From positions 71,443 to 135,442 of the forward strand of contig NZ_JBMNUS010000013.1 in assembly GCF_050946405.1 (NCBI RefSeq): a DNA stretch of 64,000 nt, given 5' to 3'. Below the pieces are notes generated by a model. It did no database searches. It saw only the letters and a program-made list of their open reading frames with translations, and was not told where the DNA came from. Positions 21,430 through 59,166 of the stretch are shown here, piece after piece; the first letter of the stretch is position 1, and each line of letters starts with the position of its first letter. The translations under genes were made by a program, and so were the position numbers. Source of the stretch: Pseudochelatococcus sp. (GTDB taxonomy: Bacteria; Pseudomonadota; Alphaproteobacteria; Rhizobiales; Beijerinckiaceae).

Positions 21430-21557
21430 AGCCGTGCCGGGGCGCAAGAAATGTCGCATTCTGGCGGCGGCCGCCGCCGCCGACCGTGCGGATATCGGAT
21501 GGAATCGACACGGCCATGCCGTTCAGCGCCGGCACGGAGCGCGTTAACGCTCCTGAA

Positions 21558-21663
21558 ATTTCACGCATTTTCACGGATATTCAAGAGGTGCCTCATCAAT
21601 GGGCAGAGACTGCCTAATGGGTAGTCACATCGGCAAAAATTGCATGATAACGACAAAAATTGC
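21558..21663 (+). promoter_or_regulatory. Low-GC upstream region of the megasynthase gene with two pairs of direct repeats (candidate operator/promoter)
   Basis: ATTTCACG occurs at 21558 and 21568 (10-bp phasing). CAAAAATTGC occurs at 21634 and 21654 (20-bp phasing). This is the only AT-rich patch between the MFS gene and the FAAL domain. Confidence 0.3.
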
Positions 21664-21711
21664 GTCGCGGGGAGAGGCGGGCGCTTGCGTCGTCATCTCC
21701 CATATCGTTAC

Positions 21712-24700
21712 ATGTCGGCGACAATCAGGCAGACTTTCCCCTCCCGATCGGATCAGCCGTTCATGTGCTCGTTCAAAGCGCCGTCGACGCTCAATGACGC
21801 CCTTGTCTCAAATGCGGGCGTGTCGGAGATCGGAGTTGCGGGCATTGGCGATCCGCCGCGCGGCGTGACCTTTTTCGGGGCCGACCGCCAGCTCACGCAT
21901 GTTTCCTACGCGCAGTTGCTCGACCGCTCCCGCCGCTGGCTGTGGCATCTGACGCAGGGCGGCGTCCGCCCCGGCGACGAGGTGCTGATCGTCACCGACG
22001 ACCTGCCGCTGTTCACGACGGTTTTCTGGGCCTGCGTGCTCGGCGGCATCGTCGCCGTGCCGGTCTCGACACCCACGAACGACGAGGGGGCGCTCAAGAT
22101 CGCGCGTATCCGGGGCGTTCTGCGGCGTCCGTGGATCGTCTCGGACGCGCGGGTGCATGCTCGCCTCGCCGCCGTCGCGGACGGGATCGCGCCGGAACGC
22201 ACGGCGTGCGCCGGCGAGCGCTCGATCGCGGTTCCCGGCGTCGTGCTCGATTGTCCGGCGGCGCCGGTGGCATCCGTGGCGGCGTCGGATGTGGCCTTCA
22301 TCCAGTTTTCCTCCGGCTCGACGGGCGCGCCGAAGGGCGTGATCGTCACCCACGCCAACCTGATCGCCAATTGCACGGCCATTCTCAAGGGCATCCTTGC
22401 GAACGCGCCCGGTGAAAACGGAGAAGCCGCGCGCCTGTTGAGCTGGATGCCGCTGACGCATGACTTCGGCCTCATCTGGTTCCACATCCTGCCGACCGTC
22501 TTCGGGCTGGATCACGGCCTCGTCCCGACGAAGCTCTTCGTGCGCAACCCGCTGGTGTGGATGCAGGCGGCCTCCGACATGAAGGCGAGCGTGCTCGGCG
22601 GGCCGAATTTCTCTTACCGGCATTTCCTCAAGCATTTCGATGCCGGCAAGCCGCGCGACTGGGATCTGTCGCCGGTCCGCGTCATCGCCAACGGCGCGGA
22701 GCCCATCTCCTGCGAACTGGCGGAGGAGTTCACCGCGGCGCTCGCGCCTTGCGGACTCGATCGCGGGGCGATGACCGCCGCCTACGGGCTGGCGGAAGGC
22801 ACGCTGGTGGTGAGCATGGCGCAGCCCGGCGCGGGGCTCGGCCGGATTTCCGTCGACCGCAACCGCGTCAATCCCGGCGAGCGCGTCGCGCCGCTGGATG
22901 AAGGCGATGACGCCGCGGTGAGTTTCGCGGATGTCGGGACGCCGCTGGATTGCGTGTCGCTGCGCGTTGTCGACGAGGCGGGGCTGCCCTGCGCCGACGA
23001 TGTGGTCGGCCGCTTGCAGATAACCGGCGCGAGCGTGACCGCCGGTTACTACAACGACGACGAGGCGACGCGCGCCGCCTTCACGGCGGACGGCTGGCTG
23101 GATACGGGCGATCTGGGCTTCATGCGCGCCGGGCGTCTCGTCGTCACGGGCCGCCGCAAGGACGTGATCATCGTCAACGGGGTGAACTACTATCCGCAGG
23201 ACATCGAGCGCGTGGCCGGCGAGGCGGAAGGGCTCGACCTCAACATGGTGGTCGCCGGCGCGATCCCGCGCGGGGTTCTCGGCGAGGATCGGGAAGGCGT
23301 CGTGCTGTTCGTGCTGTTCCGGCGCGAGGTGGAGCGGTTCCTCCCGCTCGCCCGCGAGGTGCGCGACCGCGTGCTGCGCGAGATCGGCATTCCCGTCGAT
23401 CGCGTCATTCCGGTGGCCCGCATCGCCAAGACGACGAGCGGCAAGGTGCAGCGCTTTCAGATGGTGGGGCAGTTCGTCGCCGGTGCGTTCGATGAAGCGT
23501 TGCGCGCGCTCGATGCGGCGGATGCGGCCGAGGGCGCCGCGCTGCGCCGGGCGTGGGAGCGGGGCGACGAGGCCGCGCTGGTGGCGGAACTGGCGGCGTG
23601 GGGCGCGCGCATCGTGCCGGGCGGCGCGCTCGATCCGGGCCGGCCGCTCATGGAAAGCGGCTTCACGTCGCTGCGTCTCGTCGAACTGATGCGGCGCATC
23701 GGCCGCGCGCTCTCGCTGGACCTGCCGGTCACGCTCGCCTTCGAACAGCCGACGCTGGCGGCGCTCGCCGGCGCGCTCGTGCGCCTGCGCAGCGCCGATG
23801 CCGCGCCTGCGGAAGCGCCGCGCGCCGCGCCGGCGGCGGAGCGGGCGCGGATCGGCATCACCGGGCTGGCCTGCCGCCTGCCCGGCGGCGTTGAAAGCCC
23901 GGCCGGCTTCTGGCGGCTGCTTGAAGGCGGCGTCGATGCGACGGCGCCGGTCGCGCCCGGCCGCTGGCCGGCTTACGACGCCAGCCTGACCGTGACCGAT
24001 CGCGGCGGCTATCTGGCGGATATCGAAACCTTTCCGGCCCGGTTCTTCAATCTGACGCAGGTGGAGGCCGATGCCGTCGACCCGCAGCAACGGCTGCTGC
24101 TCATGACGGCCTGGGAGGCGCTGGAGCACGCGGGGATCGATCCGCTGTCGCTGAAGGGATCGCGCACCGGCGTGTTCGTGGGCATCAGCCCCGGCGATTA
24201 CGTGCAGGCGCAGGCGCGCGCCGGCCGGCTCGACGCCATCGGCCCGCATGCGTTTCTCGGCAGCGCAACGAGCGTCGCGGCCGGGCGCATCGCCTATGTG
24301 CTGGGGCTGGAGGGGCCGGCGCTGGCCGTCGACACGGCCTGTTCGTCGGCGCTCGCGGCGCTCCATCTCGCGGTGCGGGCGCTGCGGGCCGGCGAGTGCG
24401 ACCGCGCGCTGGTGGCGGGCGTCAATCTCATCCTCGGCCCCGAGATGCATGTGGGCCTCAGCCGCATGAACGCGCTGTCGCCCGCGGGGCGCTGCCGGGC
24501 TTTCGACGCGGCGGCGGACGGCTACGCGCGCGGCGAGGGCTGCGTCACGCTCGTGCTGGAGCGTCTCGATGCCGGAGATGCGCCACGTCCGCTCGCCCTT
24601 GTGCGCGGCACGGGCCTCAACCACGACGGCGCGTCGAACGGGCTCACCGCGCCCAACGGCGCGGCCCAGCGGGCGGTGATCGCCGCCGCGCTCGCGGATG

Positions 24701-27700
24701 CGGGCCTTGCGCCGGCCGATGTCGACTATGTGGAGGCGCACGGCACCGGCACGCCGCTCGGCGACCCGATCGAGGCGATGGCGCTGGCGGAAGCCTACGG
24801 CGCGGGGCGCGACGGCGAGCTGCGCGTCGGCTCCGTCAAGACCAACATCGGCCATCTGGAGGCCGCCGCCGGTCTTGCCGGCCTCGCCAAGGCGGTGCTC
24901 GCGCTCCGGCATGGCAGCCTGCCGGCCTCGCTGCATTTCGAGACGCCCAATCCGCTGATTCCGTGGCCGCAACTGCCCCTGCGCGTCGTCGACCGCGCCG
25001 AGCCGTGGCCGGCCGTGGCCGGGCGGGTGCGCCGGGCCGGCGTCAGCGCCTTCGGCATGAGCGGCACCAACGCGCATGTCATCATCGAGGAAGCACCGCC
25101 GGCGCCCGTGCCCGCGCATGACGACGCGCGGGCGACGGTGCTGCCGGTTTCCGCGCGCACGCCGGAGGAATGCGCCGCGCTGGCGGAGCGTTACGCGGCC
25201 GCGCTGGAGCGCGCCGACAGCGGCCGCATGCACGATCTGGCCCGCACGGCAGCGTGCGGCCGGGCGGCGATGGCGCATCGGCTGGCGGTGACGGGACGCG
25301 ATCCGGCGGAACTCGCCGCGAAGTTGCGGGCGAAGGCCGCCGCCGGGGCTGGCAGGCCCGATGCCGGCGCGCCCGTCGTCTTCCTGCTGCCGGGGCAGGG
25401 GGCGCATGCGCCGGAGGCGGTGCGCGCGCTCCATGCGCGCGAGCGCGTGTTCCGTGAGACGCTGGATGCGGCCGATGCGGCGCTTGAGGGCTTTCTGGAC
25501 CGGCGCCTGACCGATCTCCTGCTGTCGCCGGAGGGCGCGCCGCTTCTGGGGCGCACGGCCTACAACCAGCCGGCGACGGTGGCGGTGTCGCTGGCGGTGG
25601 CGGCGATGCTGCGGGCGTTCGGCGTGCGGCCCGATGCGGTCATCGGGCATTCGGCCGGCGAGATCGCGGCGGCGGCGCTCGCGGGCATGCTGGATCTGCC
25701 CACGGCGGTGCGGTTCGCGGCGGCGCGCGGCGCGGCCATGCAGGCGCTCGACGGCGGCGCGATGATCGCGGTGCGCGCGCCGGCGCAGACGATCAACGAC
25801 GTGATTGCGCAGACCCTGGCGCGGGTCGAGGGCGTGGGCGTCGCCGCCTGGAACGCGCCGGCGCGCGTCACGCTGTCGGGGCCGCGCGAGGCGGTGGCGC
25901 GGGCGGCCGCCGTCCTGCGCGAGGCAGGCGCGCGCGTGGCAGAGCTGCGCGTGGCGGAGCTGGACGTGTCGCACGCCTTCCACTCGCCGATGATGGACGG
26001 CGCGCTCGCCCCCATCCGCGAACTTGCCGCCGGCCTCACGGTGAGCGCGGCGACGGGGCGCATGATTTCCACGCTGACGGGCGGGCCGGTCGATGCCGGG
26101 GCGCTGCGCGATCCCGCCTATTGGGCGCGGCAGGCGCGCGAGCCGGTGGCCTTTGCCGCCGCCGTGTCGGCGGTGGGGGGCGATGCGCCCGACCGCGTCG
26201 ATCCGGTTCTGATCGATCTTGGCGCGCGGCCGGTGCTGGCGCCGCTCGCGGCGGAGGTGCTGCCGCAGGCGCGCTGCCTCGCCGTCTGCGACGCGCGCCG
26301 GCCCGACGAGCGGCTCATCGAGACGCTGGGCGAACTGTTCGAAGCCGGCCGGCCCGTGGCATGGCCCGCCGTCTTCGCGGAGCGTCCCGGCCGGCTCGCG
26401 GAAGCGCCGACCTATCCCTTCATCGGCAAGACGCGCGTGCTGCCGACGGCCGGTGCGGATTCCCGCGCCGGCGAAGCGCAGGCGGCCGGCCGGGCGGAAG
26501 CGCTGCCCGTGCCCGCGGCGACAGCCCCGGTGGCGGGGCGCGAGGCGGTTGCGCACGTCATCCGCAGCGTCCTGCGCGGCGTCGCCGGGCTCCAGCCGGA
26601 GGAGGTGGCGGGCGATGCGACATGGTTCAGCCTCGGCCTCGATTCGCTGCTGATCGTCCAGCTCCAGCAGGCGCTGGCGCGCGAATACGCCATCGACCTG
26701 CCGCTCGCCGCCGTCATGGAGAACGGCGATACGCTCGACCGGCTCGTGACCCTCGTGGTGGAGCGCCTGCCCCGCGTGGCGCAAGCGCCGGTGGAAGCGC
26801 CCGTTATGGAGACGCCCGCTGCGGCGGCGGCTGGCGGCGAAGGCGTCGAGGGGCTTCTCGCCCGGCAGATCGACGCCATGAGCGCGCTGTTCAGCCAGCA
26901 ACTCGCGTTGCTTCAGGGCGGAGTCCGGCCGGCGGTTTCGACGCCCGCCGCTATCCCGGACGTCGCAGTCGCCGGGCCGGCCCCGGCCGCGCCGAAACGC
27001 GAGATCAAGGGCCTGTTCAAGGCGCTGCCGGCGCGCAGGGAGCAGGCGAATCCGGCGCAGGAGGCGCATGTGCGCCGCCTTGCCGCCGCCTTCAACGCCC
27101 GCACGCGCTCCTCGAAGGAGCATACGGCTGCCTATCGTGGCGTCTACGCCAACCCGCGCGCCGTGATCGGCTTCCGCCCCGAGTGGAAGGAGCTGAACTA
27201 CCCCCTGCATGTGGAGCGGGCGGAAGGGCCGTATGTGTGGGATATCGACGGCCATCGTTATGTCGACATCACCATGGGTTTCGGCGTGACGCTGTTTGGC
27301 CACAACCCGCCCTTCGTGCGCGAGGCGCTGGCGGCGGAGCTTGCCGCCGGCTTTCCCGTCGGCCCGCAGAGCGCGCGGGCCGGGCGGGTCGCCGCCATGA
27401 TCAGCGCCATGACCGGCGTGGAGCGGGTGGCGCTGTTCACCACCGGCAGCGAGGCCGTCATGGTCGCGCTGCGGCTGGCGCGCGCGAAAACCGGCCGGCG
27501 CAAGATCGTGACCTTCGTCAATTCCTATCACGGCACGTTCGACGGCGTGCTGGCGGTGGGCTGGACCGAGGGCGCGCGCGTGACGACCATGCCCGTGAGC
27601 GAAGGTACGCCGCAAGGCATGGTCGATGACGTGATCGTGCTGCGCTACGGCGATCCGGCCGCGCTCGACGTCATCCGCCAGCACCTCGCCGAACTGGCGG

Positions 27701-30700
27701 CCGTGGTGGTGGAGCCGGTGCAGAGCCGCGACCCGGCGGTGCAGCCGCGCGCCTTCCTGCACGAGTTGCGGGCGCTGACGGCGCAGGCGGGCGTCGCGCT
27801 CGTTTTCGACGAGACGATCACCGGCTTTCGCGTGCATCCCGGCGGGGCGCAACGCCATTTCGGCATCGAGGCCGATATCGTCACCTACGGCAAGGTCGTC
27901 GGCGGCGGCATGCCGATCGGCGTCGTCTCGGGAAGGCGGCATTATCTCGACGGCGTCGACGGCGGCGACTGGCAGTATGGCGACGATTCCGTTCCTTCCG
28001 CCCGCACCGCCTTCGTGGCCGGCACCTTCAACAACCATCCCCTGACGGCGGCGGCGGCGGAGGCGGTGCTGAAGCACCTCGCCGCCGAGGGGCCGCAGTT
28101 GCAGGAGCGGCTGAACGCCCGCACCGCCGCGATGTGCGCCGAGCTAGACGCCCTGTTCGCGGCCGAGGACGTGCCCGTCCGCATGGCGCATTTCAGCTCG
28201 CTGTTCCGTTTCGAGTTCGCCGGCGACACCGAGATCCTCAACTATCACCTGCTCAACAACGGCGTTTTCGTCTGGGAGGGGCGCAACTGCTTCCTCTCCA
28301 CCGCCCACAGCGACGACGACATCCGCTTCATCGTCGAGGCGGTGCGCAAGGGCATCGCGGAGATGCGGGCCGGCGGATGGCTGCCGCCGTCGCCGGGCCG
28401 CGCCGCGCCCGAGGCGCGCCAAGAGCATGGTGCGCGCGAGGAGGCAGGACCGGCGCCGCTCGGCCGGGGGCAGGGCGAGATGCTGGCGCTGCTCGAAGCG
28501 CGGCCGGAGGCGACGCTCGCCTATAACGAGATGGTGGCCTTCGCGCTCGACGGCCCGCTCGACCGGGAGGCGCTGCGCCGCGCCTTCGCCGGGCTCGTGC
28601 GGCGCCACGAGGCGCTGCGTTGCGCGGGCATCGACGAGACCGGCTGGCGCGCGGCGGCTCTTCCGCCCGCCGACCTGCCGGCGGAAGAGCCGGCCGAAGA
28701 AGGAGCGGTGATGGCGCGCCTGGCGCGCGAACTCGAAACGCCGTTCGATCTGCAACGCGGGCCGCTCATGCGCGCGCTGCTGCTGCGCCTTGCGCCGCAG
28801 CGGCATGTGGTGGCTTTCACCGTGCATCACATCGTCGCCGACGGCTGGTCGCTCGGCCTGATGGCGGGCGAACTCGCGGCGCTTTACGCCGCCGAACGGG
28901 CCGGCGTGGCGGCGGCGCTGCCGCCGGCCGAATCGTTCCGCGCCTTCGTCGCCTGGACGCAGGGCTTGGACGGCGGCGCGTCTCCGATGGCGGAAGACAG
29001 CGCGCCCGTCGTCCTGCCGGCCGCCGATTTCCCGCATCGCGCGTCCTTCCGCGGCGGGCGCGTCCACCGCCGCCTGTCGGCGGGCGGGCGGGAAGGCGAA
29101 GGCGTGTTCGATGCCGCGAGGCGTTTCGCGCGCGCGCATGACACAAGCCCGTTCACGGTGCTGCTCGCGGCCTATGCGCTGCTGCTCGGCCGCCTGTCGG
29201 ACCAGCGCCGGCTGACCATCGGCATTCCCGTCGCCGGCCATACGGAGGCCGGCTTGCCGGTGATGGTGGGGCAGGCGTCGGCGGTGCTGCCGCTGACGCT
29301 GGAACTCGATCCGCAAGCGGATTTCGCAGCCCTCGTTGCCCATGTGAAGGCGGCGCTGGCCGATGCCCGGCACGGCGTCGGCGGGCTCTTCACCGCGCAG
29401 GGCGGGCGGGGCACCGATGTCAACGTGCTGTTCAACCTCGACCGCGGTTTCCGGCTCGATTTCGAGGGATTGGGGCTGACGTGGATATCGCCTCCGGTCA
29501 GCCGGCCGAAAAAGGACCTGTTCCTCAACGTGCTGGAGCTGAACGGCGAAGCGCTGCTCGATCTCGATCATGACGGTGCGCTGGGCGATTCCGCCACGGC
29601 GGAGCGCTGGCTCGATTCCTTCCTGTCGCTGCTCGCCGAGGGGCTGCGCGCGCCCGCGACGCCGATCGCGCGCCTGCCGCTCTCCGCCGCTGACCGGGCG
29701 GCACAGGCGGATGATGTGCGCACGCGCGACGGCTTCGGCGCGCCGGCCGCCATCGGCACGGTCGCGCCGGTGGAGGCGCGCGACGATGCGGGGCTTTGGG
29801 CCGACACGGGGCGGCTCGGCCGGCTGCGGGCGGATGGCGGCGTCGAGGTGCTGGGCGAGGCGCGGCGTTTCCTGCGCACGCGCGGCGGCTGGCTCGATCT
29901 CGACCTTCCGGCGCGGGTGCTGCGGGAACACCCGGCGCTGGCCGATGCCGCCGTGATCGCGGAATCCGGCGGGCTGACCGCCTTCGTGACGCCGCGCGCG
30001 GGCGGGCAGGTCGACGGGCAGGCGCTCGCCGCCTATGCGGCGCTGCGGCTGCCGCCCGAGGCGCGGCCGGCCGCCTTCGTCGTGACGGATATCGCGCGCG
30101 ATGCCGGGGGGCGCGCCCTCCTGCGCGCCGATCACGGCGAGCGTCTCGCCACGCGCGCCCTCACGCCCGCCCGCACCGATGCGGAGAAGGCGGTCGCGGC
30201 GATCTGGGCCGAGGTTCTCGGGCTGGAGGAAGTCGGCGTCCTCGACAGCTTCTTCGACCTCGGCGGTCACAGCCTCAAGGCGCTCGCCATCCTCGCGCGC
30301 GTCGAGGCGCGGCTCGGGCGCACCGTGCGGCTGCGCGCCTTCTTCGAGGAGCCGACCGTGGCGGGGCTCGCGTCACGTCTGGGCGCGGGCGAGGCGCATG
30401 CCGTCATTCCGACCGCGGCACCGGCGGCGCATTATCCGGCGTCGAACGCGCAGGCGCGGCTGTGGATGCTCGACCGGATCGATCCCGGCCTTGCCGCCTA
30501 CAACATCGGCTTTTCGCTGCGCAGCGCCGCGCCTCTCGACGAAACCGCGCTGCGGATCGCGCTGGCGGGCCTCGCCGGGCGGCACGAGAGCCTGCGCACG
30601 GCGCTCATCGACCATGACGGCCTGCCGCGCCAGACGATCCTGCCCGCGTTGCAGCCCGAGCTGCGCATCGAGGATGCGGTGGGCGCGGACGCGGCGGCGC

Positions 30701-36354: not shown

Positions 36355-36357
36355 GCC

Positions 36358-47364: not shown

Positions 47365-47401
47365 ACAGGCGGTTGCGTTTTGACGAGAGGCATGCAGGGG
47401 A

Positions 47402-50836: not shown

Positions 50837-51586
50837 CCGGGTGTTTCCGAGCCGCATATGCGCGAGGACTTGCGCGTGAAACTCGTCCGCGTTCTCGCGC
50901 AGGAAGAAGTGCCCGCCCGCGATCGTCACCAGCTCGAAACCATCGCCCGCGACCGCCGCCCAGCCGGCGATCTCGCGCGGCGAGACGAGCGGATCGTCCG
51001 CGCCGGCGAAGGCGACGACCGGACAGGTCAGGCGCTCGACCGGAAAGGGCAGGGACGTTTCCGCCAGGGCGAAATCCGCCCTGAGCGTGCGCTCGAACAA
51101 TTCTCGGAACTCCGCGTTGCGCACGATTTCCTCCGGCGTGCCGTTGTAGGAGGACAGCCGGCGCCAGAATTCTTCGGAAGGCAGGTCATGCAGCGGCGGC
51201 ATGCGGGGCGGGGCGCCGGGAGGGCGATGCGCGGCGACCATGACGCAGGCGGGCGCGGGAAGACCGAGACGATCCGCCGCCCGCGCGAGACAATAGGCGA
51301 CGCGCGCGCCAAGCGAGTAGCCGAGCAGGACGTAGGGACGATCGAGCAGCGGCGTGAGCGCCTCGATGAGGCGCGCCAGCAGGAGGGGCATCGAGGCAAT
51401 GGGGGTCTCCGAAAAGCGGCTTTCGCGGCCGGGGAACTGCGCGGGCAGGACTTCGAGCCGCTCATGAGCGCGCGCATGCGCCCGCAATCCGGCGAAGGCG
51501 GATACGCCGCCACCCGCGAAGGGCAGACAGATCAGCCGCATGGCAGGGCGACCCGTACCCCCGGCGGCGGGAAACCAACGGCGCAT
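50819..51586 (-). CDS. Type II thioesterase (GrsT/TEII family alpha/beta hydrolase)
   Basis: RLICLPFAGGG, GYSLGARVAYCLA (GxSxG), and a C-terminal GGHFFL. The start is uncertain (ORF extends to 51703; the Met at 51586 gives a typical length of about 255 aa). Confidence 0.85.
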   Translation of the reverse strand: MRRWFPAAGGTGRPAMRLICLPFAGGGVSAFAGLRAHARAHERLEVLPAQFPGRESRFSETPIASMPLLLARLIEALTPLLDRPYVLLGYSLGARVAYCLARAADRLGLPAPACVMVAAHRPPGAPPRMPPLHDLPSEEFWRRLSSYNGTPEEIVRNAEFRELFERTLRADFALAETSLPFPVERLTCPVVAFAGADDPLVSPREIAGWAAVAGDGFELVTIAGGHFFLRENADEFHAQVLAHMRLGNTRSETPV

Positions 51587-51882
51587 GGCCGCAGCAGAGA
51601 CGGACGGTTCCGCTCCTTCTTCGCCAGCAGCGGTAATGTCTCTCTCCATTGCCATCATGTCTTCGGGGTATCGGATCGTGCGCATTATTATAGCAGGCGA
51701 CAAAGGTATAGCTCTCGACTCCGATGGTCAACTATGATAGGTGTAGGATATTACTTTCATGAAATAGAAAGTGTTCTGGACAGTGTGCGCCGGTTGCGTC
51801 GGGGCGGGGCCTGAAAGCGGTGGGCGGTGGACTGTCACGGTTGCGAATTCCATCTCGTTTCATACTCCCGGAGGAGAGCATC

Positions 51883-52512
51883 ATGGTTGCCGAGGCGCAG
51901 AACAGTGTCGGGGAAGAAGTCGCGGCAGCCGAGCCTGCCAGCCGCCAGAAGGCCGAGCAGATCATTCGCAAATATACGCTGTGGGCGACGGGCGCGGGCC
52001 TCATTCCGGTTCCCGTGCTGGACGCCGTCGGCGTGGCGGGCGTGCAATATGCGCTGGTCAACGATCTGGCGTCGCTCTACGGCGTGCCGTTCTCGAAGGA
52101 GCGCGTGCGCGCGCTCGTCGCCGGCCTGGTCGGCGGCGGCGTTCCGGCGCTGCTGACCACCGGCGGGCTCGCCAGCGCGGCGAAGGCCGTTCCGTTCGTG
52201 GGCTCGCTGCTCGGCGCGGCGGTGTTTCCCGCGCTTTCGGCCGCCGCGACCGTGGCGCTCGGCCGGGTGTTCACGCAGCACTTCGAGGCCGGCGGCACGC
52301 TGCTTGACTTCGACGCCGAGAAGACGCGCGCTTTCTTCGCGGAAGAGTTCGAGAACGCCCGCAAGGAAGTGGGCGAGACGCTGGCAAGCGCGGGTGTCGG
52401 CGTGGCCGGAAAAGCCAAGGCGGCAGATGCCCCGGCTGCTCCCGTTCCTGCCGCCGCTGCTCCTGCTTCGGCGGCGAAGAAGGAAACGGCTGCCGCGCCC
52501 GCCGCCGTGTGA
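51883..52512 (+). CDS. DUF697-family membrane-associated protein
   Basis: IIRKYTLWATGAGLIPVPVLDAVGVAGVQYALVNDLASLYGVPFSKE. The ATG at 51883 is preceded by ggaggagag. The C-terminal tail is Ala/Pro-rich. Confidence 0.65.
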   Translation: MVAEAQNSVGEEVAAAEPASRQKAEQIIRKYTLWATGAGLIPVPVLDAVGVAGVQYALVNDLASLYGVPFSKERVRALVAGLVGGGVPALLTTGGLASAAKAVPFVGSLLGAAVFPALSAAATVALGRVFTQHFEAGGTLLDFDAEKTRAFFAEEFENARKEVGETLASAGVGVAGKAKAADAPAAPVPAAAAPASAAKKETAAAPAAV

Positions 52513-52625
52513 GGCTGCGAGCGCGTCGGCATCGTGCCGGCGCGCCTTGCCGGAATGGGCGCCTTCCGATCGTAACGGGTGGGAGACACGCTGACGCCGG
52601 GGCGGGTTGACGAGAAAGAACGCGA

Positions 52626-52817
52626 ATGGCTGTCGTCATTTACTTTATGCTGTGCGTGCTTGTCGGGATACTCGGCCTCGGTTATTGGGGCGGCTTTCTT
52701 CTGTACTTCATTCTCGCGCTCGCCATGACGCCGCTTGTCGCCTTGCTGGTGCTCATCATCGTGGGATCGAGCGAGGGGCGGCGCGGCTTCGCGCGGTTCA
52801 GGAAGCCGGAGCCCTGA
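52626..52817 (+). CDS. Hypothetical small membrane protein (63 aa, two predicted TM helices)
   Basis: ORF MAVVIYFMLCVLVGILGLGYWGGFLLYFILALAMTPLVALLVLIIVGSSEGRRG.. is strongly hydrophobic. No family was recognised. Confidence 0.35.
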   Translation: MAVVIYFMLCVLVGILGLGYWGGFLLYFILALAMTPLVALLVLIIVGSSEGRRGFARFRKPEP

Positions 52818-52914
52818 CGATATCCCTGCCCGCATGGCCGGGCGCGGCCGGGTTGCGCCGCGCATTCGATGAACGTTCATGGCCGGCCTTGCCGCCGGTG
52901 CGTCACGGAAGACG

Positions 52915-54318
52915 ATGACACAACAAGATCTTTTCACCCCGGATGCCGGTGTCGCGCCTGCGCGGCACTGGCGCCGGTTTCGTCTGCCGCGCCGCCGCGA
53001 TCTTATGCTGTGCGTGCTTGTCGTGCTGCTTTGCGTGACGTTTCTCGCGCCCTACATGGTCGTCAATATTCCGGCCGGGTCCGCCGGCGTGATATGGCGT
53101 CGCTTCGGCGGAGGCACCGATACGGAGATGGTGCTGCACGAGGGCATCGCGCTGATCTGGCCGTGGAACCGCGTGCAGCTCTATGACCTGCGTCTCCAGA
53201 GCGAAAGCATCGATATCGTCGCGATTTCCCAGGACGGGCTGAACATCACCATCGGCCTGACCTTCCGCTGGTTCGTCAACCCCAAGTTCGTCGGCTGGTT
53301 GCACAAGATCGCGGGCCCCCAATACATGCAAAGAATTCTCCTGCCGGAACTGAACTCATCGACAAGACAGGAGTTTTCGAAGTTCAGGATGGTGGATTAT
53401 TATGGCCCGAACCGGGAAGAAATGCTTTCCCGCGTTTACAGCACCGTCGTCGATCGCGGATTTCCCAACTTCATTTTCGCGCCGAAGGATCTCGATACGG
53501 TCAATGCCGGTCTCAAGGTCAACGACGGCCTGATCATGCTGACCGATGTCCTGATTCGCGAAGTGGTGATGCCGCCCCGCGTCGTTGCCGCGGTGCAGGC
53601 GAAAATCGAGCAGCAGCAACTCGTTCAGGAAATGCAGCACCGGGTGGAGCGCGAGCGCTTCGAGAACCAGCGCAAGGAAATCGAGGCGGAAGGGATTCGC
53701 AAGTTTCAGCAGATCGTGCAGACGGGGATTTCCGAAGCCTATCTCAAGTGGCGCGGCATCGAGGCGACGGTCCTGCTGGCGAACTCGCCCAATGCCAAGA
53801 CGATCGTTCTCGGCGGCAACGGCGGCCTGCCTCTCATTCTGAACACCGGCGACGCGGGGACGCCGGCGGCGGTTGCGGCCGCGCCGTCCGCGCCTCCCGC
53901 CCCCGAGGGCAAGAACGGCGCGGCCAGATATCTCGGTTCCGTCGACATCTCGCGGCCGGACATGCGCAATCGGGAATCGAAGGGATTGGGCCTCGGCGCG
54001 ACGCTGCATCCGGCGCAGGGCGCGTGGTCCCGCGATGTCGCCGCCATCGGGCCTACCGCGACCTCCGGCATCGCCGGTTCCGCGAACGCGGCCGGCCCTG
54101 ACGCGAGCCGGGTTCCCGGCGTTTCTCCCGCCGGCCCCGGCAATGTGGAGGCCGGCGCGCTGTCGATGCCCGCGCCGCGTCCGCCGGGCGTGCTGCCGAT
54201 CATGTCGCCGTTCATCGGCGTCGGCGGCACGGTTTCGTTCTGGCAGAAGCTTTCCAGCCTCTTCGGTATCGCGGACCCGCCCGGCGGGCAGGCCGAGACC
54301 GGGCCGCCCACGCCCTGA
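52915..54318 (+). CDS. SPFH/band-7 (prohibitin/flotillin-like) membrane protein with a C-terminal Pro/Ala/Gly-rich tail of about 160 aa
   Basis: The N-terminal TM segment LMLCVLVVLLCVTFLAPYMVV is followed by an SPFH core: GSAGVIWRRFGGGTDTEMVLHEGIALIWPWNRVQLYDLRLQSESIDIVAISQDGLNITIGLTFRW, then a coiled region QAKIEQQQLVQEMQHRVERERFENQRKEIEAEGIRKFQ. Confidence 0.75.
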   Translation: MTQQDLFTPDAGVAPARHWRRFRLPRRRDLMLCVLVVLLCVTFLAPYMVVNIPAGSAGVIWRRFGGGTDTEMVLHEGIALIWPWNRVQLYDLRLQSESIDIVAISQDGLNITIGLTFRWFVNPKFVGWLHKIAGPQYMQRILLPELNSSTRQEFSKFRMVDYYGPNREEMLSRVYSTVVDRGFPNFIFAPKDLDTVNAGLKVNDGLIMLTDVLIREVVMPPRVVAAVQAKIEQQQLVQEMQHRVERERFENQRKEIEAEGIRKFQQIVQTGISEAYLKWRGIEATVLLANSPNAKTIVLGGNGGLPLILNTGDAGTPAAVAAAPSAPPAPEGKNGAARYLGSVDISRPDMRNRESKGLGLGATLHPAQGAWSRDVAAIGPTATSGIAGSANAAGPDASRVPGVSPAGPGNVEAGALSMPAPRPPGVLPIMSPFIGVGGTVSFWQKLSSLFGIADPPGGQAETGPPTP

Positions 54319-54331
54319 TCCGGCCGGGCAC

Positions 54332-57300
54332 ATGTCCGCGGCGGGCCGGCAGCGGGCAGGACGTCACCAGCAACTTCCAAACCGTAATGGCGAAACCGTG
54401 CTCTCCCGCGACAACATCAAGGACATCTATCCGCTGACGCCTTTTCAGGAAGGGGTCGTCTTTCACGATCTCATGGAGCGCGAGGCGGCGCACGAGGGCC
54501 AGCGCGCCTACTTTCAGCAGATGAGCTTCACCGTGCGCGGGCCGCTGGATATCGCGGCCTTCCGGCGCGCCTGGCAATTCCTGGTGGACCGGCATGACGT
54601 GCTGCGCACCGTCTTCCGGCCGACAGGCGCGGAGCGGCCGTTGCAAATCGTGCTGAAGGCGCGTGAACTCGTGCCGGATGTCGTCGACTGCCGCGCTCTC
54701 GGCCCGGATGCCGCCGGCGCGACCTGCGAGCGCTACGAGGCGGAGCAGCGGCAGCGCCCGTTCGATCTGCGGCGCGACCTGCTGGTGCGGCTCGGCCTGC
54801 TGCTGATCGCCCCGGAGGAGACCCGCGTCGTGTTCGGCTTCCATCATGTGCTGATGGACGGCTGGTGCATCGGCATCTTGCAGGACGACCTGACGCGCGC
54901 CTATCAGGCTTTTACGCGCGGCGATGCGCCGCGTCTGCCCGCCGCCGTTCAGTTCGGCGGTTTCGTCAAGGCGAGCGAGCGGCGGCGCACGGCGCGGGCG
55001 CTGGATTTCTGGCGCGATTATCTCGCGGATTACGAGACCGCCGTGGCGCTCCCCGGCCGCCGCCCCGTCGCCCTCGACGGGCCGCGGGACAGCCTCACGC
55101 ACGAGGCGGCGCTGGGCGAGGCGCTGACGGCGCAACTCGATGCGCGGGCGCGCGCGCTCGGGGTGACGCCGGGCACGCTGGCGCAGGCGCTCTGGGGCGT
55201 GCTGCTGGCGAAGATGGAGAATCGGCGGGATGTCGTCTTCGGCACCATGGCCTCGACGCGCCTGCCCGATCTTCCGGGCGGCGAGGCCGTGCTGGGGCCG
55301 TGCATCGGCATGCTGCCGCTGCGCATCCGCTACGCGCCATCCGAAACCTTCGCGGAACTCGTGGCGCAGGTCCATGCGCAACGGCCCGGCTGGCTCGGGC
55401 ACGTGCATTGCGCGCTGGCCGACATCCAGCAGGCGAGCGCGCCGCGCGGCGCGTTGATCGGACATTATTTCGTCTATGAGAACTACCCGCTCGACGCGCG
55501 TTTCCGGGGCGAGGCGCAGGTGCTCGCGCCCGGCGTGACGATCCATGACGTGCGGATGTTCCAGACCGGCAATTACGATTTCGGGGCGCTCATGCTGCCG
55601 GGCGAAAGCGCGCGCCTCGTGTTGACCTTCAACAGCCGGGCGGTCGATCCGGCGGCCGTGGCGCGCATCGGGCGCTGGTTCGTGCGGCTGGCGCGGCAGG
55701 CCGCCGGGGAGCCGGACTGCGCCATCGATGCCATGACCCTGCTCGATGACGAAGAGGCGGCGCGAATCGAGGCGTGGGGCCGGGGGGCGGAGCCCGGCGT
55801 GCTTGCGCCCGACATCGCGGCGCTGCGGCGCGATGTCGTGGCCCGTAGGGGCGAGGCCCCGGCTGTGCGGGCCGGCGGGCGCACGCTCTCGCACGCGGAA
55901 CTGGAAGCGCGGGCGCGCGGGCTCGCGGCCTGGTTTCGCCGCGCGCACGGGATCGGGCCGGGCGATCCGGTCGCGCTGCATCTGCCTGCCGGAGAGGGGC
56001 TGGTGACGGCGATGCTGGCCTGCCTGCTGCTCGGCGCGCCGTTCGTGCCGCTCGACCCCGGCAATCCGGCGCTGCGCACGGCCCATATCCTGAAGGACAG
56101 CGGGGCGCGGCTCGTGCTGGCGCAGGGCGCGCTGCCGGAAGAGGCGGCGGCCGGCGTGCCGGTGGCGCAATCGCCGGCCGATCCCGGCGCGCTCGACGGG
56201 GAAGCGCTGCCGGCCGTCGACGCCGACGCGACGGCCTACATCATCTATACTTCCGGCACGACGGGCGTGCCGAAGGGGGTGCGCGTCGGCCAGTCCGCGC
56301 TCATCAATTATGTCGGCTGGTTCGGCACGCTGTCCGGCGCCGGGCCTGACATGCGCACGGCGCTCGTGACCTCGGCGGCCTTCGATCTCGGCTATACCGG
56401 CCTGTTCGGCGCGCTGCTCGGCGGCGGCTGCGTGTCGCTTCCCGACGAGGACGAGCGCCGCGATCCGGCCCATGTGCTCGCCCTGCTGGCCGACCACGGC
56501 ATCATGGTGCTCAAGACGACGCCCTCCTATCTGTCGATGCTCCTCGCGACGCCGGGCGGGGAGGCGCGTCTTGCCGGGGCGGGCGCGCTGCGCCTGCTGC
56601 TGCTCGGCGGCGAGCCGCAGAATTTCGCCGAGCTGCGGCGTCTGCGGCAACGGCTTCCGGGCCTGCGCATCTACAATCATTACGGGCCGACCGAGGCCAC
56701 CATCGGCTGCGCCGCCGGCCCGCTCGACGATCTGGCGGATCGCGGCGAGGGGCCGCAACGTCTCGGCCGGCCGATCGCGGGCGTGCGCCTTTTCGTGTGT
56801 GACGCCGCGCTGCGGCCCGTGCCGCCCGGCGTGCCGGGCGAACTGCTCGTGGCCGGGCGCGGCCTCGCGCAGGGATATGTGAACGCCTCGCCCGCCGACG
56901 CCGCCCGCTTCGCCGTCCTGCCATGGTGCGGCGGGCTGCGCGTCTACCGCACCGGCGACCGCGTGCGCTGGGCCGATGACGGCACGCTGGAGTTTCTCGG
57001 GCGCGTCGACGATCAGGTGAAGGTGCGCGGCTATCGCGTCTCGCTGAAGGAGGTCGAGGCGGCGCTGACGGCGCTTGAGTGCGTGCGTGACGCGGCGGTG
57101 GTGACGGATGCGCGCGGCGGCGCGACCGAGCTTGTCGCCTATGTCGTCCCGGAAGGGGAAAGGCCGGAAGGGGAAACGACGCCGGCCGCCATCCGCGCCG
57201 CTCTGGCGCGGCGTCTGCCGCCGCCGATGATACCGGCGCGCTTCATCGCCGTGTCGCGCTTCCCGCTGACCGCCAACGGCAAGACCGACCGCAAGGCGCT

Positions 57301-58387
57301 GACCGAACACCGGCGGCCGCAGGCTCCCGCGCCCGGAGCGCCGGAGGCGGGAAACGAGACGGAGGAGAAACTGCGCGCGATCTGGCGCGAGGTGCTGTTT
57401 CTCGACCATGTGGGCCTCGACGACGATTTCTTCGCGCTCGGCGGCCACAGCCTGAAGGCGATCCTCGTCGCCTCGAAGGCGCGGGCGGTGTTCGAACGCC
57501 CGCTCACGCTGCGCAGCCTGTTCGATCACCCCACCGTGCGCCGACTCGCCGTGCATATTGTCGGCGGCGCCACGCCCACGCCTGTCGGCGGCGATCGGGT
57601 GCTGCCGCTGCGCGCGGGATCGTCCGACGCGCCGCTCGCCGTCTTTTTCCCGCCGGCGCTCGGCACGTCGACCCCCTACCGCGATCTGGTCGAGCCTCTC
57701 GCGGGCGATGTCGCCTGCATCGGGATGCAGGCGCCGGGTTTCGACCGCGACGAGCCGTTCGCGGAAAATGTGGCGGACTGCGCCGGACATTTCGTGCGGG
57801 CCTTGCGGCCGCTGATCGGACAGGGGCGGAGACTTCGACTGGTCGGCTGGTCCATGGGTGCGCATTTCGCACTGGAGACGGCGTTGCAGTTGGAGGCGGA
57901 AAACGGAGGGCATCGGAGCCCGGCGCTCGAACTGATCCTGCTGGACAGCGCCCCGCCGGCGGCGGACGACGGAACGAACGATGCGTCGGACGGCTTGCCG
58001 GGCTTCGCGGCGTTACGCACGCGCCCTTATTGGGGCCGCGTGCTGGCGATCATGGATGCGATGCCCCCGGCCGATCTCGCGCGCATCGAGCGTCTCGCCC
58101 GGCACAATCATGCCGCGGTGCGGCGACATCGCTTCACCGGCGTCGTTCACAGCCCCGTCACCTGCCTGGAGGCCGCCGATGCGCTTCCCCGCGCGGGCAT
58201 GGAAGGCTTCCGCCGATTCGCGGCCGGGCGATTCGCCGTGCATGAGGTCGGTGGCGATCATTACTCGATGTTCCATCCGCCGCATCTGAACACGGTGCTG
58301 TCGTGGCTTGAACAACTGCTGACGGCCAGCGGCAGCGGCGCGGGCGCGACACCGGCCGCCAGCGCACCGGGATCGCTGACGGCATAG
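54332..58387 (+). CDS. NRPS termination module: C-A-PCP-TE
   Basis: This is the in-frame part of ORF 53873..58387. The ATG at 54332 lies 13 nt after the SPFH stop codon. An alternative start is the GTG at 54398, immediately before LSRDNIKDIYPLTPFQEGVVFH. Confidence 0.95.
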   Translation: MSAAGRQRAGRHQQLPNRNGETVLSRDNIKDIYPLTPFQEGVVFHDLMEREAAHEGQRAYFQQMSFTVRGPLDIAAFRRAWQFLVDRHDVLRTVFRPTGAERPLQIVLKARELVPDVVDCRALGPDAAGATCERYEAEQRQRPFDLRRDLLVRLGLLLIAPEETRVVFGFHHVLMDGWCIGILQDDLTRAYQAFTRGDAPRLPAAVQFGGFVKASERRRTARALDFWRDYLADYETAVALPGRRPVALDGPRDSLTHEAALGEALTAQLDARARALGVTPGTLAQALWGVLLAKMENRRDVVFGTMASTRLPDLPGGEAVLGPCIGMLPLRIRYAPSETFAELVAQVHAQRPGWLGHVHCALADIQQASAPRGALIGHYFVYENYPLDARFRGEAQVLAPGVTIHDVRMFQTGNYDFGALMLPGESARLVLTFNSRAVDPAAVARIGRWFVRLARQAAGEPDCAIDAMTLLDDEEAARIEAWGRGAEPGVLAPDIAALRRDVVARRGEAPAVRAGGRTLSHAELEARARGLAAWFRRAHGIGPGDPVALHLPAGEGLVTAMLACLLLGAPFVPLDPGNPALRTAHILKDSGARLVLAQGALPEEAAAGVPVAQSPADPGALDGEALPAVDADATAYIIYTSGTTGVPKGVRVGQSALINYVGWFGTLSGAGPDMRTALVTSAAFDLGYTGLFGALLGGGCVSLPDEDERRDPAHVLALLADHGIMVLKTTPSYLSMLLATPGGEARLAGAGALRLLLLGGEPQNFAELRRLRQRLPGLRIYNHYGPTEATIGCAAGPLDDLADRGEGPQRLGRPIAGVRLFVCDAALRPVPPGVPGELLVAGRGLAQGYVNASPADAARFAVLPWCGGLRVYRTGDRVRWADDGTLEFLGRVDDQVKVRGYRVSLKEVEAALTALECVRDAAVVTDARGGATELVAYVVPEGERPEGETTPAAIRAALARRLPPPMIPARFIAVSRFPLTANGKTDRKALTEHRRPQAPAPGAPEAGNETEEKLRAIWREVLFLDHVGLDDDFFALGGHSLKAILVASKARAVFERPLTLRSLFDHPTVRRLAVHIVGGATPTPVGGDRVLPLRAGSSDAPLAVFFPPALGTSTPYRDLVEPLAGDVACIGMQAPGFDRDEPFAENVADCAGHFVRALRPLIGQGRRLRLVGWSMGAHFALETALQLEAENGGHRSPALELILLDSAPPAADDGTNDASDGLPGFAALRTRPYWGRVLAIMDAMPPADLARIERLARHNHAAVRRHRFTGVVHSPVTCLEAADALPRAGMEGFRRFAAGRFAVHEVGGDHYSMFHPPHLNTVLSWLEQLLTASGSGAGATPAASAPGSLTA
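54400..55720 (+). other. Domain: condensation C6 (follows an E domain in the assembly order)
   Basis: IKDIYPLTPFQEGVVFH; HHVLMDGWC at 54842. Confidence 0.85.
55790..57310 (+). other. Domain: adenylation A5 (by-eye code DLTKLGHIGK, 9/10 to the canonical Asp code DLTKVGHIGK)
   Basis: YIIYTSGTTGVPKG, AFDLGYTG, VLKTTPSY, NHYGPTEATIGCA, YRTGDRV, GRVDDQVKVRGYRVSLKEVE, NGKTDRKAL. Confidence 0.85.
57149..57178 (+). repeat. In-frame 15-bp tandem duplication (PEGER PEGET) inside A5
   Basis: ccggaaggggaaagg / ccggaaggggaaacg, read directly. Confidence 0.85.
57350..57560 (+). other. Domain: PCP5
   Basis: FFALGGHSLKA; Ser codon at 57449..57451. Confidence 0.9.
57590..58387 (+). other. Domain: thioesterase (TE)
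   Basis: GWSMG with Ser at 57851..57853, and a C-terminal His context VGGDHYSMF. Confidence 0.85.
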
Positions 58388-59166
58388 GCGGTGAGGCGCG
58401 GCCGCTCGCCGGCGCGCAGGAGCATGGTGAGCGCGAAGGCGTGGCCCGAAGCGAGCAGACCGCTCTGGACGTGCCAGACGCCCGCGCGGCGCAGGTCTTC
58501 GTCGAGATGGGCGAAGCCGAGACGGGTGAAGCCGAGACTGGCGAAGGTTGGCTGATCGAGCGAGAAACCGGCGCAGGTCAGCGGGCGGGAAAGGCCCTGG
58601 CCAAGGCCCTTCACCACGCTTTCCTTCAGCGTCCACAGCCTGAAGAAGCGCTCCGCCATCGGTGTCGGGCAGTCGCCGTGAGCGGAATCCGGCTGGATGG
58701 GAGAGCGTTCCAGCGCGGCAAGGCCGGCCAGTTCCGCCGCCGTGCAGAAGCTTTGCGCCAGTTCGATCGTCGCCGTCGCCGGCGTCACGCGCTCGACATC
58801 GACGCCGGTCTCGCGGCCCTCGCACAACGCGACCGCCACGCAGCCCGCCGTGTGCGACAGGCTGAAGCGCACGTCAGGCATCCCCGGCGCGCGCACGATG
58901 CACGGCTTGCCGAGGGGCGAGGCGGTAAAGCGCCATGCCGCCGGCCCCGTTCCGGCGATATGGCGGGACAGCGCCCCCCGCAGCAGGCCGTGCGCGGCGA
59001 CGAATGTCTCGCGATCGCGCTCGAAACGGAAACGGCCCGCCCGCGCGGTCTCCTGCGCGTCGAGCCACGCTGCCGCCCGCCCGCCGGCGATCCCGGCCGG
59101 AGCCGCGATGTAAACCGATACCGGAATGTCCCGTATGGACGCCGGACTGTCGTGCATTATATCCAT
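58261..59166 (-). CDS. 4'-phosphopantetheinyl transferase (Sfp/EntD type)
   Basis: RFRFERDRETFVAAHGLLR, FSLSHTAGCVAVA, GVDVE, FRLWTLKESVVKGLG. Its 3' end overlaps the NRPS TE-coding region. Confidence 0.85.
   Translation of the reverse strand: MDIMHDSPASIRDIPVSVYIAAPAGIAGGRAAAWLDAQETARAGRFRFERDRETFVAAHGLLRGALSRHIAGTGPAAWRFTASPLGKPCIVRAPGMPDVRFSLSHTAGCVAVALCEGRETGVDVERVTPATATIELAQSFCTAAELAGLAALERSPIQPDSAHGDCPTPMAERFFRLWTLKESVVKGLGQGLSRPLTCAGFSLDQPTFASLGFTRLGFAHLDEDLRRAGVWHVQSGLLASGHAFALTMLLRAGERPRLTAYAVSDPGALAAGVAPAPLPLAVSSCSSHDSTVFRCGGWNIE

Follow-up and report, generated by a model that had tools for sequence, protein, structure and literature searches.

We analyzed a 64,000-nucleotide (nt) stretch of contig NZ_JBMNUS010000013.1 from a metagenome-assembled genome (MAG) of Pseudochelatococcus sp.; this whole stretch is called the window below. 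It contains three synthetase genes at 21.6-59.2 kb, all of them large open reading frames (ORFs) on the plus strand, which belong to a hybrid polyketide synthase (PKS)-nonribosomal peptide synthetase (NRPS) cluster. Pfam was run on the whole ORFs and on ten overlapping 700-amino acid (aa) slices of the first protein. The domain string of the original prediction was reproduced exactly. The first protein contains a FAAL (fatty acyl-AMP ligase), an acyl carrier protein (ACP), a ketosynthase (KS), an acyltransferase (AT), a second ACP, and an aminotransferase (AMT), followed by condensation (C)-(adenylation [A] remnant)-peptidyl carrier protein (PCP), C-C-A-PCP, and a terminal C. The second protein reads A-PCP, C-A(methyltransferase)-PCP-epimerization (E), and the third C-A-PCP-thioesterase (TE). 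The accessory genes listed in that prediction, namely those for an AsnB-type amidotransferase, an ABC exporter, a type II thioesterase (TEII), an Sfp-type phosphopantetheinyl transferase (PPTase), and a beta-lactamase-fold protein, were all found as well. Three conserved genes inside the cluster had gone unmentioned; they encode a DUF697 protein, a 63-aa protein with two helices, and an SPFH/Band 7 protein. Every catalytic motif checked (KS, AT, AMT, AsnB, S12 hydrolase, TEII, and TE) is intact, and those of them that were compared with orthologues are conserved there. The expected absence of an MbtH-like ORF held, since the MbtH motif is missing from every frame of the whole window.

A genome scan identified Xanthobacter sp. 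VTT E-85238 and Methylobacterium sp. EM32 as carriers of full-length relatives. Their megasynthases (4880 and 4864 residues) are 63-65% identical to that of the window and show the same domain order, including a module without an A domain. The same cluster is present in Xanthobacter, Methylobacterium, Azospirillum, and a second Pseudochelatococcus, with synthetase identities of 63-68%. Neighborhoods of the S12 hydrolase gene were fetched from Methylobacterium sp. EM32, Azospirillum sp. TSH100 (L086), Pseudochelatococcus sp. B33 (L087), a Logan contig (L088), and an NCBI assembly (L089). The recurrence of the whole arrangement in other genera, together with a GC3 of 0.84-0.88 in all large ORFs, indicates that the cluster is not a chance assembly. 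Related loci do not share the upstream MFS and ChrB genes or the downstream alpha/beta hydrolase gene, which were therefore left out of the cluster. Hence, the limits proposed earlier were essentially right, except that the start codon is found 100-220 nt downstream of the proposed start at 21540. The G+C content is 0.71-0.75 within the synthetase genes (window 22000-46000), 0.65-0.71 upstream, and 0.60-0.63 downstream. This contrast and the patchy spread over Hyphomicrobiales and Azospirillum fit horizontal transfer. We consider it probable (roughly 0.8) that the locus is an intact, horizontally patchy alphaproteobacterial cluster for a small lipopeptide built on a beta-amino fatty acid.

The first gene (21763..36354, plus strand) encodes the hybrid megasynthase FAAL-ACP-KS-AT-ACP-AMT-C-(Asub remnant)-PCP-C-C-A(Thr)-PCP-C, as assigned by Pfam, gene call, and orthologues. 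Its ORF (21640-36354) is open from a TTG codon at 21640, which would give 4904 aa. On an identical Logan contig, the gene caller placed the start 41 codons later, at about 21763 (4863 aa), and ATG 21763 is the likely start. The domains were located at aa positions 85-616 (FAAL), 660-713 (ACP), 737-1101 (KS), 1247-1534 (AT), 1640-1705 (ACP), 1853-2211 (AMT), 2281-2681 (C), about 2715-2850 (a degenerate A C-terminal subdomain [Asub] only), 2851-2913 (PCP), 2930-3353 (C), 3380-3804 (C), 3823-4311 (A), 4344-4407 (PCP), and 4426-4869 (C).

The fatty acid would be loaded by the FAAL and the first ACP (21892..23778, plus strand; AMP-binding, 1.4e-50, and PP-binding). The best solved-structure matches of the loading domain include the FAALs 3PBK and 3KXW, the FAAL-PKS 7R7E, and FadD32. 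The following KS-AT-ACP extension module (23848..26754, plus strand; Pfam and motifs) has no ketoreductase (KR), dehydratase (DH), or enoylreductase (ER). The Cys/His/His triad of the KS is intact (DTACSS, HGTGT, NIGH), and the cis-acting AT carries GHSAG and the malonyl-type motif HAFH. Both ACP serines are present, that of the extension module in LGLDSL. Next comes an embedded class III aminotransferase dependent on pyridoxal phosphate (PLP) (27196..28272, plus strand; Aminotran_3, 6e-51), with its PLP lysine in TYGKVVGGG. It is 79-82% identical among orthologues, and the lysine of YGK is kept in four genera. A C domain with HHIVADGWS starts 70 residues past the AMT. No Pfam matches to KR, DH, ER, monooxygenase, or C-methyltransferase domains were found in gene 1, which has no unassigned stretch long enough for one. 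The predicted head module for a beta-amino acyl starter is thus complete in FAAL, KS triad, malonyl cis-AT, and AMT lysine and free of reductive domains, and a route from a beta-keto to a beta-amine starter is well supported by this domain content. ACP-AMT proteins of this kind abound in public data: among 8000 candidates scored, 1420 proteins were related to the segment at E ≤ 1e-20. The best database match of this segment showed 61% identity, and the best named relatives, from Paenibacillus, showed 43-44%.

Module 1 (28480..30378, plus strand), delimited by Pfam, motifs, and orthologues, consists of the C domain with HHIVADGWS, the degenerate A C-terminal subdomain, and a PCP (GGHS). The core of the A domain is missing and its A10 lysine is lost; the PCP beside it is intact. 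The same architecture is found in Xanthobacter, Methylobacterium, and Azospirillum. PCP1 ranks with the most highly conserved segments (71-78% identity across genera, with invariant FFDLGGHSLKAL), and C1 keeps HHIVADGWS in every orthologue. The A remnant is the least conserved segment (51-56% identity in orthologues) and is still alignable. A deletion or MAG artifact was ruled out as its origin, because an independent Logan assembly encodes a protein of the same length and the architecture is shared by three genera.

Module 1 is followed by tandem C domains (30427..33051, plus strand; Pfam and motifs), the first LCL-like (HHAIADVWS) and the second divergent (HHAMGDR). Besides HHAIADVWS, the first contains SNAQARLW (of the SxAQxRLW type), YRDYAVW, and IGFFVNTLALR. 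We also considered a PCP-E-C arrangement with a miscalled E domain and rejected it, since the motifs of the first domain are of the LCL type and true E motifs sit at the end of NRPS 2. The second domain reads HHxxxD[R/K/P]A in orthologues, and ordinary LCL-type C domains (Txo1, Txo2, fuscachelin, TycC) match it best among solved structures. A reading of this domain as a beta-hydroxylase interface or a P450-recruiting X domain was considered; no TauD or P450 gene is present in the window. In orthologues, the two tandem C domains show about 61-67% identity, on par with the other C domains, and both keep HHxxxD. Comparison across genera indicates that the A-less module 1 is a maintained design and that the tandem C domains are conserved, neither being a product of decay.

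One could instead regard module 1 and one tandem C domain as evolutionary debris that is skipped, so that the product has four residues. The missing A core, the lost A10 lysine, the weakly conserved remnant, and the lack of any free-standing A domain encoded in the cluster would agree with this. It is an unlikely explanation, since debris would hardly persist at 63-65% overall identity with its architecture kept in three other genera, its carrier protein so well conserved, and the active-site motifs of C1 and of both tandem C domains retained. Because module 1 is conserved although its own A domain does not work, some other A domain must load PCP1. PCP1 is closest to PCP2 (55% identity), followed by PCP5 (45%), and the neighboring Thr A domain is our best guess for the predicted loading enzyme.

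The ten-residue specificity codes were extracted manually from motifs A4, A5, and A10 and compared with those in Xanthobacter, Methylobacterium, Azospirillum, Pseudochelatococcus B33, and three loci from metagenomes or Logan. For Thr, the classical code is DFWNIGMVHK. Module 2, in which A-PCP is followed by a C domain that pairs with the A-PCP opening the next protein (33106..36246, plus strand; Pfam and code), has the Thr-like code DFWSVGMVHK (DFWNVGMVHK in the Methylobacterium orthologue). NRPS 2 (about 38262..45683, plus strand; Pfam, codes, and motifs) has the order A(DVRHLALLAK)-PCP-C-A(DAATIAAVCK, with an O-methyltransferase insert)-PCP-E. Arg239 and His278 in the module 3 code suggest that residue 3 may be acidic. 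D-x-R-H codes may be associated with iso-linked acidic residues in microcystin synthetases, a lead for which no confirmation was found in the literature searched. The module 4 code is Phe/Tyr-like, and the terminal domain of NRPS 2 is a true E domain (HHLVMD, ESHGRE, FNYLGQ). NRPS 3 (54332..58387, plus strand; Pfam, motifs, and code) consists of a DCL-type C domain (YPLTPFQEG), an A domain with the Asp code DLTKLGHIGK, which is identical in six loci, a PCP, and a TE with GWSMG and a His. All five PCP serines are present. The codes recoverable from the fetched loci all match, save that the Thr code varies at one position (S or N) and the Tyr-like code of the rearranged locus L084 (see below) at two. 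These manual codes agree with the residue calls made originally (Thr-like; unassignable; aromatic-like followed by E; Asp).

The A domain of module 4 contains a methyltransferase insert at about 42819-43871, between a8 and a9; it follows GRADDQVKVAGHRIE (a8) and precedes NGKIDR (a10). Four motifs have been described for type III Ms(O,Tyr,a8-a9) domains: V(V/L)(E/D)(I/V)GxGxxA; GD..(L/I)PEx(A/V)(D/E)xC(V/I)SEI(V/I/F)GxI; (I/V)FxxxxxxFDLR; and WLPV(F/Y)(F/L)P (PMC8341866). VVDIGTGPVA, GDALTLELPETVDFCISEIVGAI, and IFAEVGQPFDLR of the insert match these type III Tyr O-methyltransferase motifs exactly, and WLPVWLPA has one mismatch to the fourth (W for F/Y). Motif ii of the insert is conserved in orthologues. 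The insert is also similar to protein arginine methyltransferases (PRMT6, 2e-17), a similarity reported for the O-methyltransferase domain of lyngbyapeptin synthetase (LynB3-OMT; PMC10127204). An arginine or guanidine methylase was ruled out, given the matches to published Tyr motifs and the PRMT likeness known for the class. Thus, the domain resembles the type III interrupted A domains ThxA2, DidJ, and VatN (PMC8341866) and LynB3-OMT (PMC10127204) in its a8-a9 insertion, its four motifs, its PRMT-like insert, and its Tyr/Phe-like code, and differs from them by a single methyltransferase domain without a back-to-back N-methyltransferase and by the E domain that follows. Residue 4 is most likely O-methyl-Tyr; it would be converted to the D form by the E domain and then be accepted by the DCL-type C domain of NRPS 3. 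The earlier call of a methylated, D-configured, aromatic-like residue is supported and is refined here to O-methylation of the Tyr side chain instead of N-methylation.

What had been described as an exported beta-lactamase-fold hydrolase is present but is really a 1144-aa autotransporter fusion (47402..50836, plus strand), which matches Beta-lactamase PF00144 (5.6e-40) and Autotransporter PF03797 (8.3e-29). It consists of a signal peptide, an S12 passenger, a Gly-rich stalk, and a barrel ending in F. The N terminus reads ...AAAAVTGTALAADV, and the signal peptide was judged by eye. The passenger contains SASK, YSN, and HSG, corresponding to SxxK, YxN, and (H/K)xG, and its best solved structure is the alkaline D-peptidase 4Y7P (3e-23). 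The PF03797 barrel covers residues 865-1124, and the protein ends in ...GLHWRF. Signal peptide, passenger, and a barrel with an aromatic end are the features of a type Va autotransporter, and the S12 hydrolase is predicted to be displayed on the cell surface.

Between this gene and NRPS 3, three genes for membrane proteins lie on the plus strand: a DUF697 gene (51820..52512; PF05128, 2e-10), an ORF found by translation for a conserved 63-aa protein with two predicted transmembrane helices (MAVVIYFMLCVLVG...; 52626..52817), and an SPFH/Band 7 gene (52879..54318; PF01145, 7e-17). The position of DUF697 is shared by L085-L089, and L084 also has a DUF697 gene (42-63% identity). Called genes of 59-75 aa, clearly alignable with the small ORF, are at the same position in four other loci, and SPFH orthologues (48-53% identical) also keep their position. 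The block S12-DUF697-small ORF-SPFH-NRPS 3 (C-A(Asp)-PCP-TE) is kept in four other loci, even with the megasynthase on the opposite strand. The fifth locus, L089, has S12-DUF697-NRPS 3 only, without the small ORF and the SPFH gene, and its hydrolase (706 residues) has no autotransporter barrel. In L087 (17975-19255) and L088 (15788-17125), a gene for a BBP2_2 outer-membrane beta-barrel protein is located between the SPFH gene and the last synthetase gene.

None of these four proteins (S12 autotransporter, DUF697, small ORF, SPFH) has a known role in NRPS chemistry, and one may ask whether they form an unrelated envelope operon inside the cluster. A 33% identical S12-autotransporter fusion does occur without NRPS genes (L090, JGI 3300035696, 10001-13114), beside an oligopeptide ABC importer and a D-amino-acid-oxidase-type gene; this context is in keeping with an ancestral role of the fusion in scavenging D-peptides. 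Yet all S12 homologues of at least 42% identity with a fetched neighborhood (n = 5) belong to this cluster family and lie between synthetase genes, in Hyphomicrobiales, Azospirillum, and metagenome loci of varying order and strand. The fusion is also very rare, with 22 proteins at E ≤ 1e-10 among 8000 candidates scored, which were drawn from 5.8 billion clusters; no copy was found in the plasmid collection. We therefore regard an unrelated operon as improbable and treat the four genes as part of the lipopeptide cluster.

The genes of the D-peptidases BogQ and TriF sit within NRPS clusters. D-stereospecific S12 peptidases act on lipopeptides, occur in NRPS clusters, and cut D-L-type bonds, and BogQ and TriF are described as D-peptidases (PMC12903863). 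The enzyme encoded here shares the beta-lactamase fold and the SxxK, YxN, and H/KxG motifs with 4Y7P, BogQ/TriF, and Lip3/Lip7, which cleave beside D residues (PMC12903863), but it is fused to a type Va barrel and predicted to be located on the outer membrane of a Gram-negative bacterium. A single D-L bond, D-Tyr(OMe)-Asp, is predicted in the product, and this is the bond type that S12 D-peptidases cut; hence, maturation or detoxification of the product outside the cell is the most plausible role of the surface enzyme. For the DUF697, two-helix, and SPFH proteins, a role in protecting the envelope of the producer is plausible. In ClbP/XcnG-type prodrug activation, an N-acyl-D-Asn pro-motif is made by a starter C-A(Asn)-PCP-E, and the peptidase is anchored by C-terminal transmembrane helices. 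We rejected this model, because the sole E domain follows module 4, module 1 has neither an A nor an E domain, the peptidase ends in a barrel, and the ClbP match is weak (2e-6). A SurE/PBP-type cyclase is cytoplasmic and replaces a missing TE. Such an offloading role was likewise rejected, since the S12 protein has an export signal and a barrel and the last module has its own TE.

Domain content, intact motifs, specificity codes, and cross-genus conservation are the direct basis of our proposal, and from them we infer the chemical steps, the loader of PCP1, the AsnB target, how the product is released, and what the peptidase and the membrane proteins do. The predicted product is most likely beta-amino fatty acyl-X1-Thr-X3-D-Tyr(OMe)-Asp (or Asn). 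The FAAL would adenylate a fatty acid and load it onto ACP1, the KS and the malonyl cis-AT would extend it by two carbons on ACP2 without reduction, and the PLP aminotransferase would convert the beta-keto group to a beta-amine. C1 would then couple the beta-amino acyl chain to the residue on PCP1, which another A domain (the Thr domain at best guess) would have loaded. Extension would continue with Thr, residue 3 (possibly acidic), Tyr, which would be O-methylated and epimerized to D, and Asp, added via the DCL-type C domain. The TE would release the product as a macrolactam closed onto the free beta-amine or as a linear acid, AsnB would amidate one carboxylate, and the ABC exporter would carry the product out. 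At the surface, the S12 D-peptidase could act on it, most simply at D-Tyr(OMe)-Asp, for maturation or self-protection. The membrane would be the site of action of the DUF697, two-helix, and SPFH proteins, which would probably confer tolerance of the product.

With respect to release, a linear, microginin-like lipopeptide with a free beta-amine is a real, if tentative, alternative. In this case, the TE would hydrolyze the chain and the S12 enzyme would trim the C-terminal Asp in the manner of a DL-carboxypeptidase. The TE has a normal Ser/His set with no cyclase mark, the closest S12 enzymes are carboxypeptidases or endopeptidases acting after D residues, and the S12 and Asp-module genes are kept in one conserved block. 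On the other hand, iturin- and puwainaphycin-type systems with the same head yield macrolactams (PMC4219810), and the exporter passes a cyclic-peptide exporter model, although that is a family name only; the release modes are inseparable by sequence alone. A more speculative scheme, which we think doubtful, places the finishing step outside the cell. For the PBP-like S12 enzyme on the outer membrane, the C-terminal D-Tyr(OMe)-Asp would serve as a donor resembling D-Ala-D-Ala; the D residue would become the acyl group of an acyl-enzyme, and Asp would be expelled. Hydrolysis or transfer to the free beta-amine, the latter giving a macrolactam at the surface, would follow, with the DUF697, two-helix, and SPFH proteins shielding the membrane of the producer itself. 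If true, surface macrolactam formation would be a leaving-group, extracellular maturation route for a nonribosomal lipopeptide in Gram-negative bacteria.

Relatives of the cluster vary. A TauD-family dioxygenase gene directly follows the gene of the Asp-module synthetase in L086 (Azospirillum sp. TSH100, 19720-20691) and in L088 (21243-22211); the window has none. This is the usual route to beta-hydroxy-Asp, and the two strains may make a beta-hydroxy-Asp variant. L089 has TonB-dependent receptor fragments and an isochorismate-synthase-like gene nearby. Together with the terminal Asp, which is invariant across the family, these genes could point to a lipopeptide metallophore (siderophore-like) instead of a membrane-active antibiotic or surfactant. 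We give this little credence, as the 64-kb window contains no TauD, TonB receptor, siderophore importer, or hydroxamate/catechol genes, a single possible beta-hydroxy-Asp provides too few ligands for Fe(III), and the genes conserved along with the synthetases encode an exporter, a peptidase, and membrane proteins.

The locus L084 (ENA ERZ4231649 NODE_638, 1-23147) is rearranged: it has one protein for FAAL-ACP-KS and another for AT-ACP-AMT, the latter lacking a C domain at its end. Next come AsnB and an A-PCP-C-A(OMT)-PCP-E protein. At the end of the contig, a C-domain protein is encoded on the opposite strand, and two DUF697 genes and a gene for a BBP2_2 barrel are nearby.

Several points weigh against our reading of the cluster as a pathway for this beta-amino lipopeptide. 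The product is known for no member of the family, and the structure given above is a prediction. The codes behind it were read by hand from motifs, not by a trained predictor, and no verifiable match to the module 3 code was found in the literature searched. No A domain can be named for PCP1, which is only modestly nearer to PCP2 than to PCP5, and the role of the second tandem C domain is unexplained. Peptide length differs within the family, as the segment from C1 to C4 is missing from the AMT protein of L084. Finally, the TauD genes in two relatives and the TonB receptor gene in one hint that the product may bind metal.

Beta-amino lipopeptides are known to arise by a FAAL-PKS-AMT route in the biosynthesis of iturin (MycA) and puwainaphycin (PuwE) (PMC4219810). 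Iturin synthetases (MycA/ItuA/BamA, MycB/C; PMC4219810) likewise combine an acyl-AMP ligase, ACP, KS, ACP, class III AMT, and C domain with NRPS modules in one protein, start with a beta-amino fatty acid, and end in TE release. The cluster described here has the corresponding FAAL with its own carrier, a nonreducing KS module, and an embedded AMT followed by a C domain. It differs from iturin operons by a cis-AT instead of a separate transacylase (FenF), by five modules (the first without an A domain) instead of seven, and by Thr, unplaced, Tyr-like, and Asp codes instead of those for an Asn-rich heptapeptide. In this comparison, the tandem C domains, the module split as C//A-PCP, the predicted O-methyl-D-Tyr, AsnB, the surface S12 peptidase, the membrane proteins, and the Gram-negative host are found here only. 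Puwainaphycin/minutissamide clusters (PMC4219810) are alike in their FAAL start, a PKS with an embedded AMT feeding an NRPS, a TE end, and an ABC transporter. There, FAAL and ACP are separate proteins, whereas they are fused here. The puwainaphycin monooxygenase beside the AMT and the reducing and methylating PKS module (PMC4219810) have no counterparts among the Pfam matches here, and the pentapeptide predicted here is unlike puwainaphycin. Judged by its domains, the cluster follows iturin-type logic and falls outside the iturin and puwainaphycin families. Among other FAAL lipopeptides, ralsolamycin and occidiofungin contain amino fatty acids. They are made by Ralstonia and Burkholderia, respectively, and are likewise products of proteobacterial, FAAL-dependent hybrid PKS-NRPS pathways (PMC11837247). 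Compared by description only, these betaproteobacterial systems make much longer peptides and have no reported autotransporter peptidase or DUF697/SPFH proteins. A review of FAALs has no alphaproteobacterial beta-amino lipopeptide among those it covers (PMC11837247), and no characterized counterpart of the cluster was found in the literature searched.

The cluster is thus an orphan, conserved variant of a known biosynthetic logic, with familiar core chemistry. Beta-amino fatty acid lipopeptides such as iturins, puwainaphycins, and laxaphycins are potent membrane-active antifungal and cytotoxic agents. What is new here is the conserved module without an A domain, the pair of C domains, and, most of all, the constantly linked set of a surface D-peptidase and membrane proteins. 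The peptidase and the three membrane proteins may point to an unrecognized mode of lipopeptide maturation or tolerance in diderm bacteria. For NRPS enzymology, the cluster raises the questions of how a PCP is loaded without an A domain, what the divergent second C domain does, and which group the amidotransferase targets. The family is conserved in plant- or soil-associated Methylobacterium, Azospirillum, Xanthobacter, and Pseudochelatococcus. Several carriers are cultured strains, so the product can be sought directly.

Among the accessory genes, that for the AsnB-type amidotransferase (36358..38247, plus strand) lies between the first two synthetase genes, as in all four loci covering this position (58-80% identity). 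The protein passes the asparagine-synthase model (TIGR01536, 434.7 bits versus a cut-off of 267) and has an N-terminal MCG and an SGGLDS loop, which makes it a real glutamine-dependent amidotransferase. Its target could be the Asp side chain, the C-terminal carboxylate, or the carboxylate of residue 3. Genes for an identical AsnB with the same neighbors are found on Logan contigs L001-L003 (SRR31066337, SRR22347833, SRR22347831) from three unrelated-looking runs, showing that the organism or a near-identical strain recurs in public data. The SyrD-like ABC exporter of the cyclic-peptide type (45724..47364, plus strand; TIGR01194, 313.8 bits versus a cut-off of 286) has orthologues of 68-74% identity at the same position.

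The TEII gene (50819..51703; PF00975, 1.3e-30) lies on the minus strand; a plus-strand ORF at its position was dismissed as spurious. TEII carries GYSLG and GGH, is present in Methylobacterium at 61% identity, and is missing from some relatives. Its gene overlaps that of the autotransporter by 18 nt (50819-50836). The Sfp/HetI-type PPTase gene (58261..59166, minus strand; PF01648, 3e-12; NF042922, 3e-21, below the cut-off) is conserved in L087 and lies upstream of the megasynthase gene in Xanthobacter. It converges with the third synthetase gene in a 127-nt 3' overlap (58261-58387), and the long PPTase tail may be an artifact of ORF calling.

Outside the cluster, window positions 1-20200 carry ordinary catabolic genes. 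They encode a D-2-hydroxyacid dehydrogenase, a LysR regulator, a PotA-type ABC importer, two DAO-type oxidoreductases, a GMC oxidoreductase, two aldehyde dehydrogenases, a tartrate dehydrogenase, a cupin, a class III aminotransferase, an Lrp regulator, an alanine racemase, and a ChrB-N protein. The upstream genes that were compared (Lrp regulator, alanine racemase, second DAO-type oxidoreductase, and ChrB-N) are not conserved beside related clusters. On the other side, just beyond the PPTase gene, the alpha/beta hydrolase gene (59292-60407; Abhydrolase_1/6, with a weak thioesterase match) was not found in related loci. It is overlapped by a minus-strand ORF (59172-60335) that has no family match and is probably spurious.

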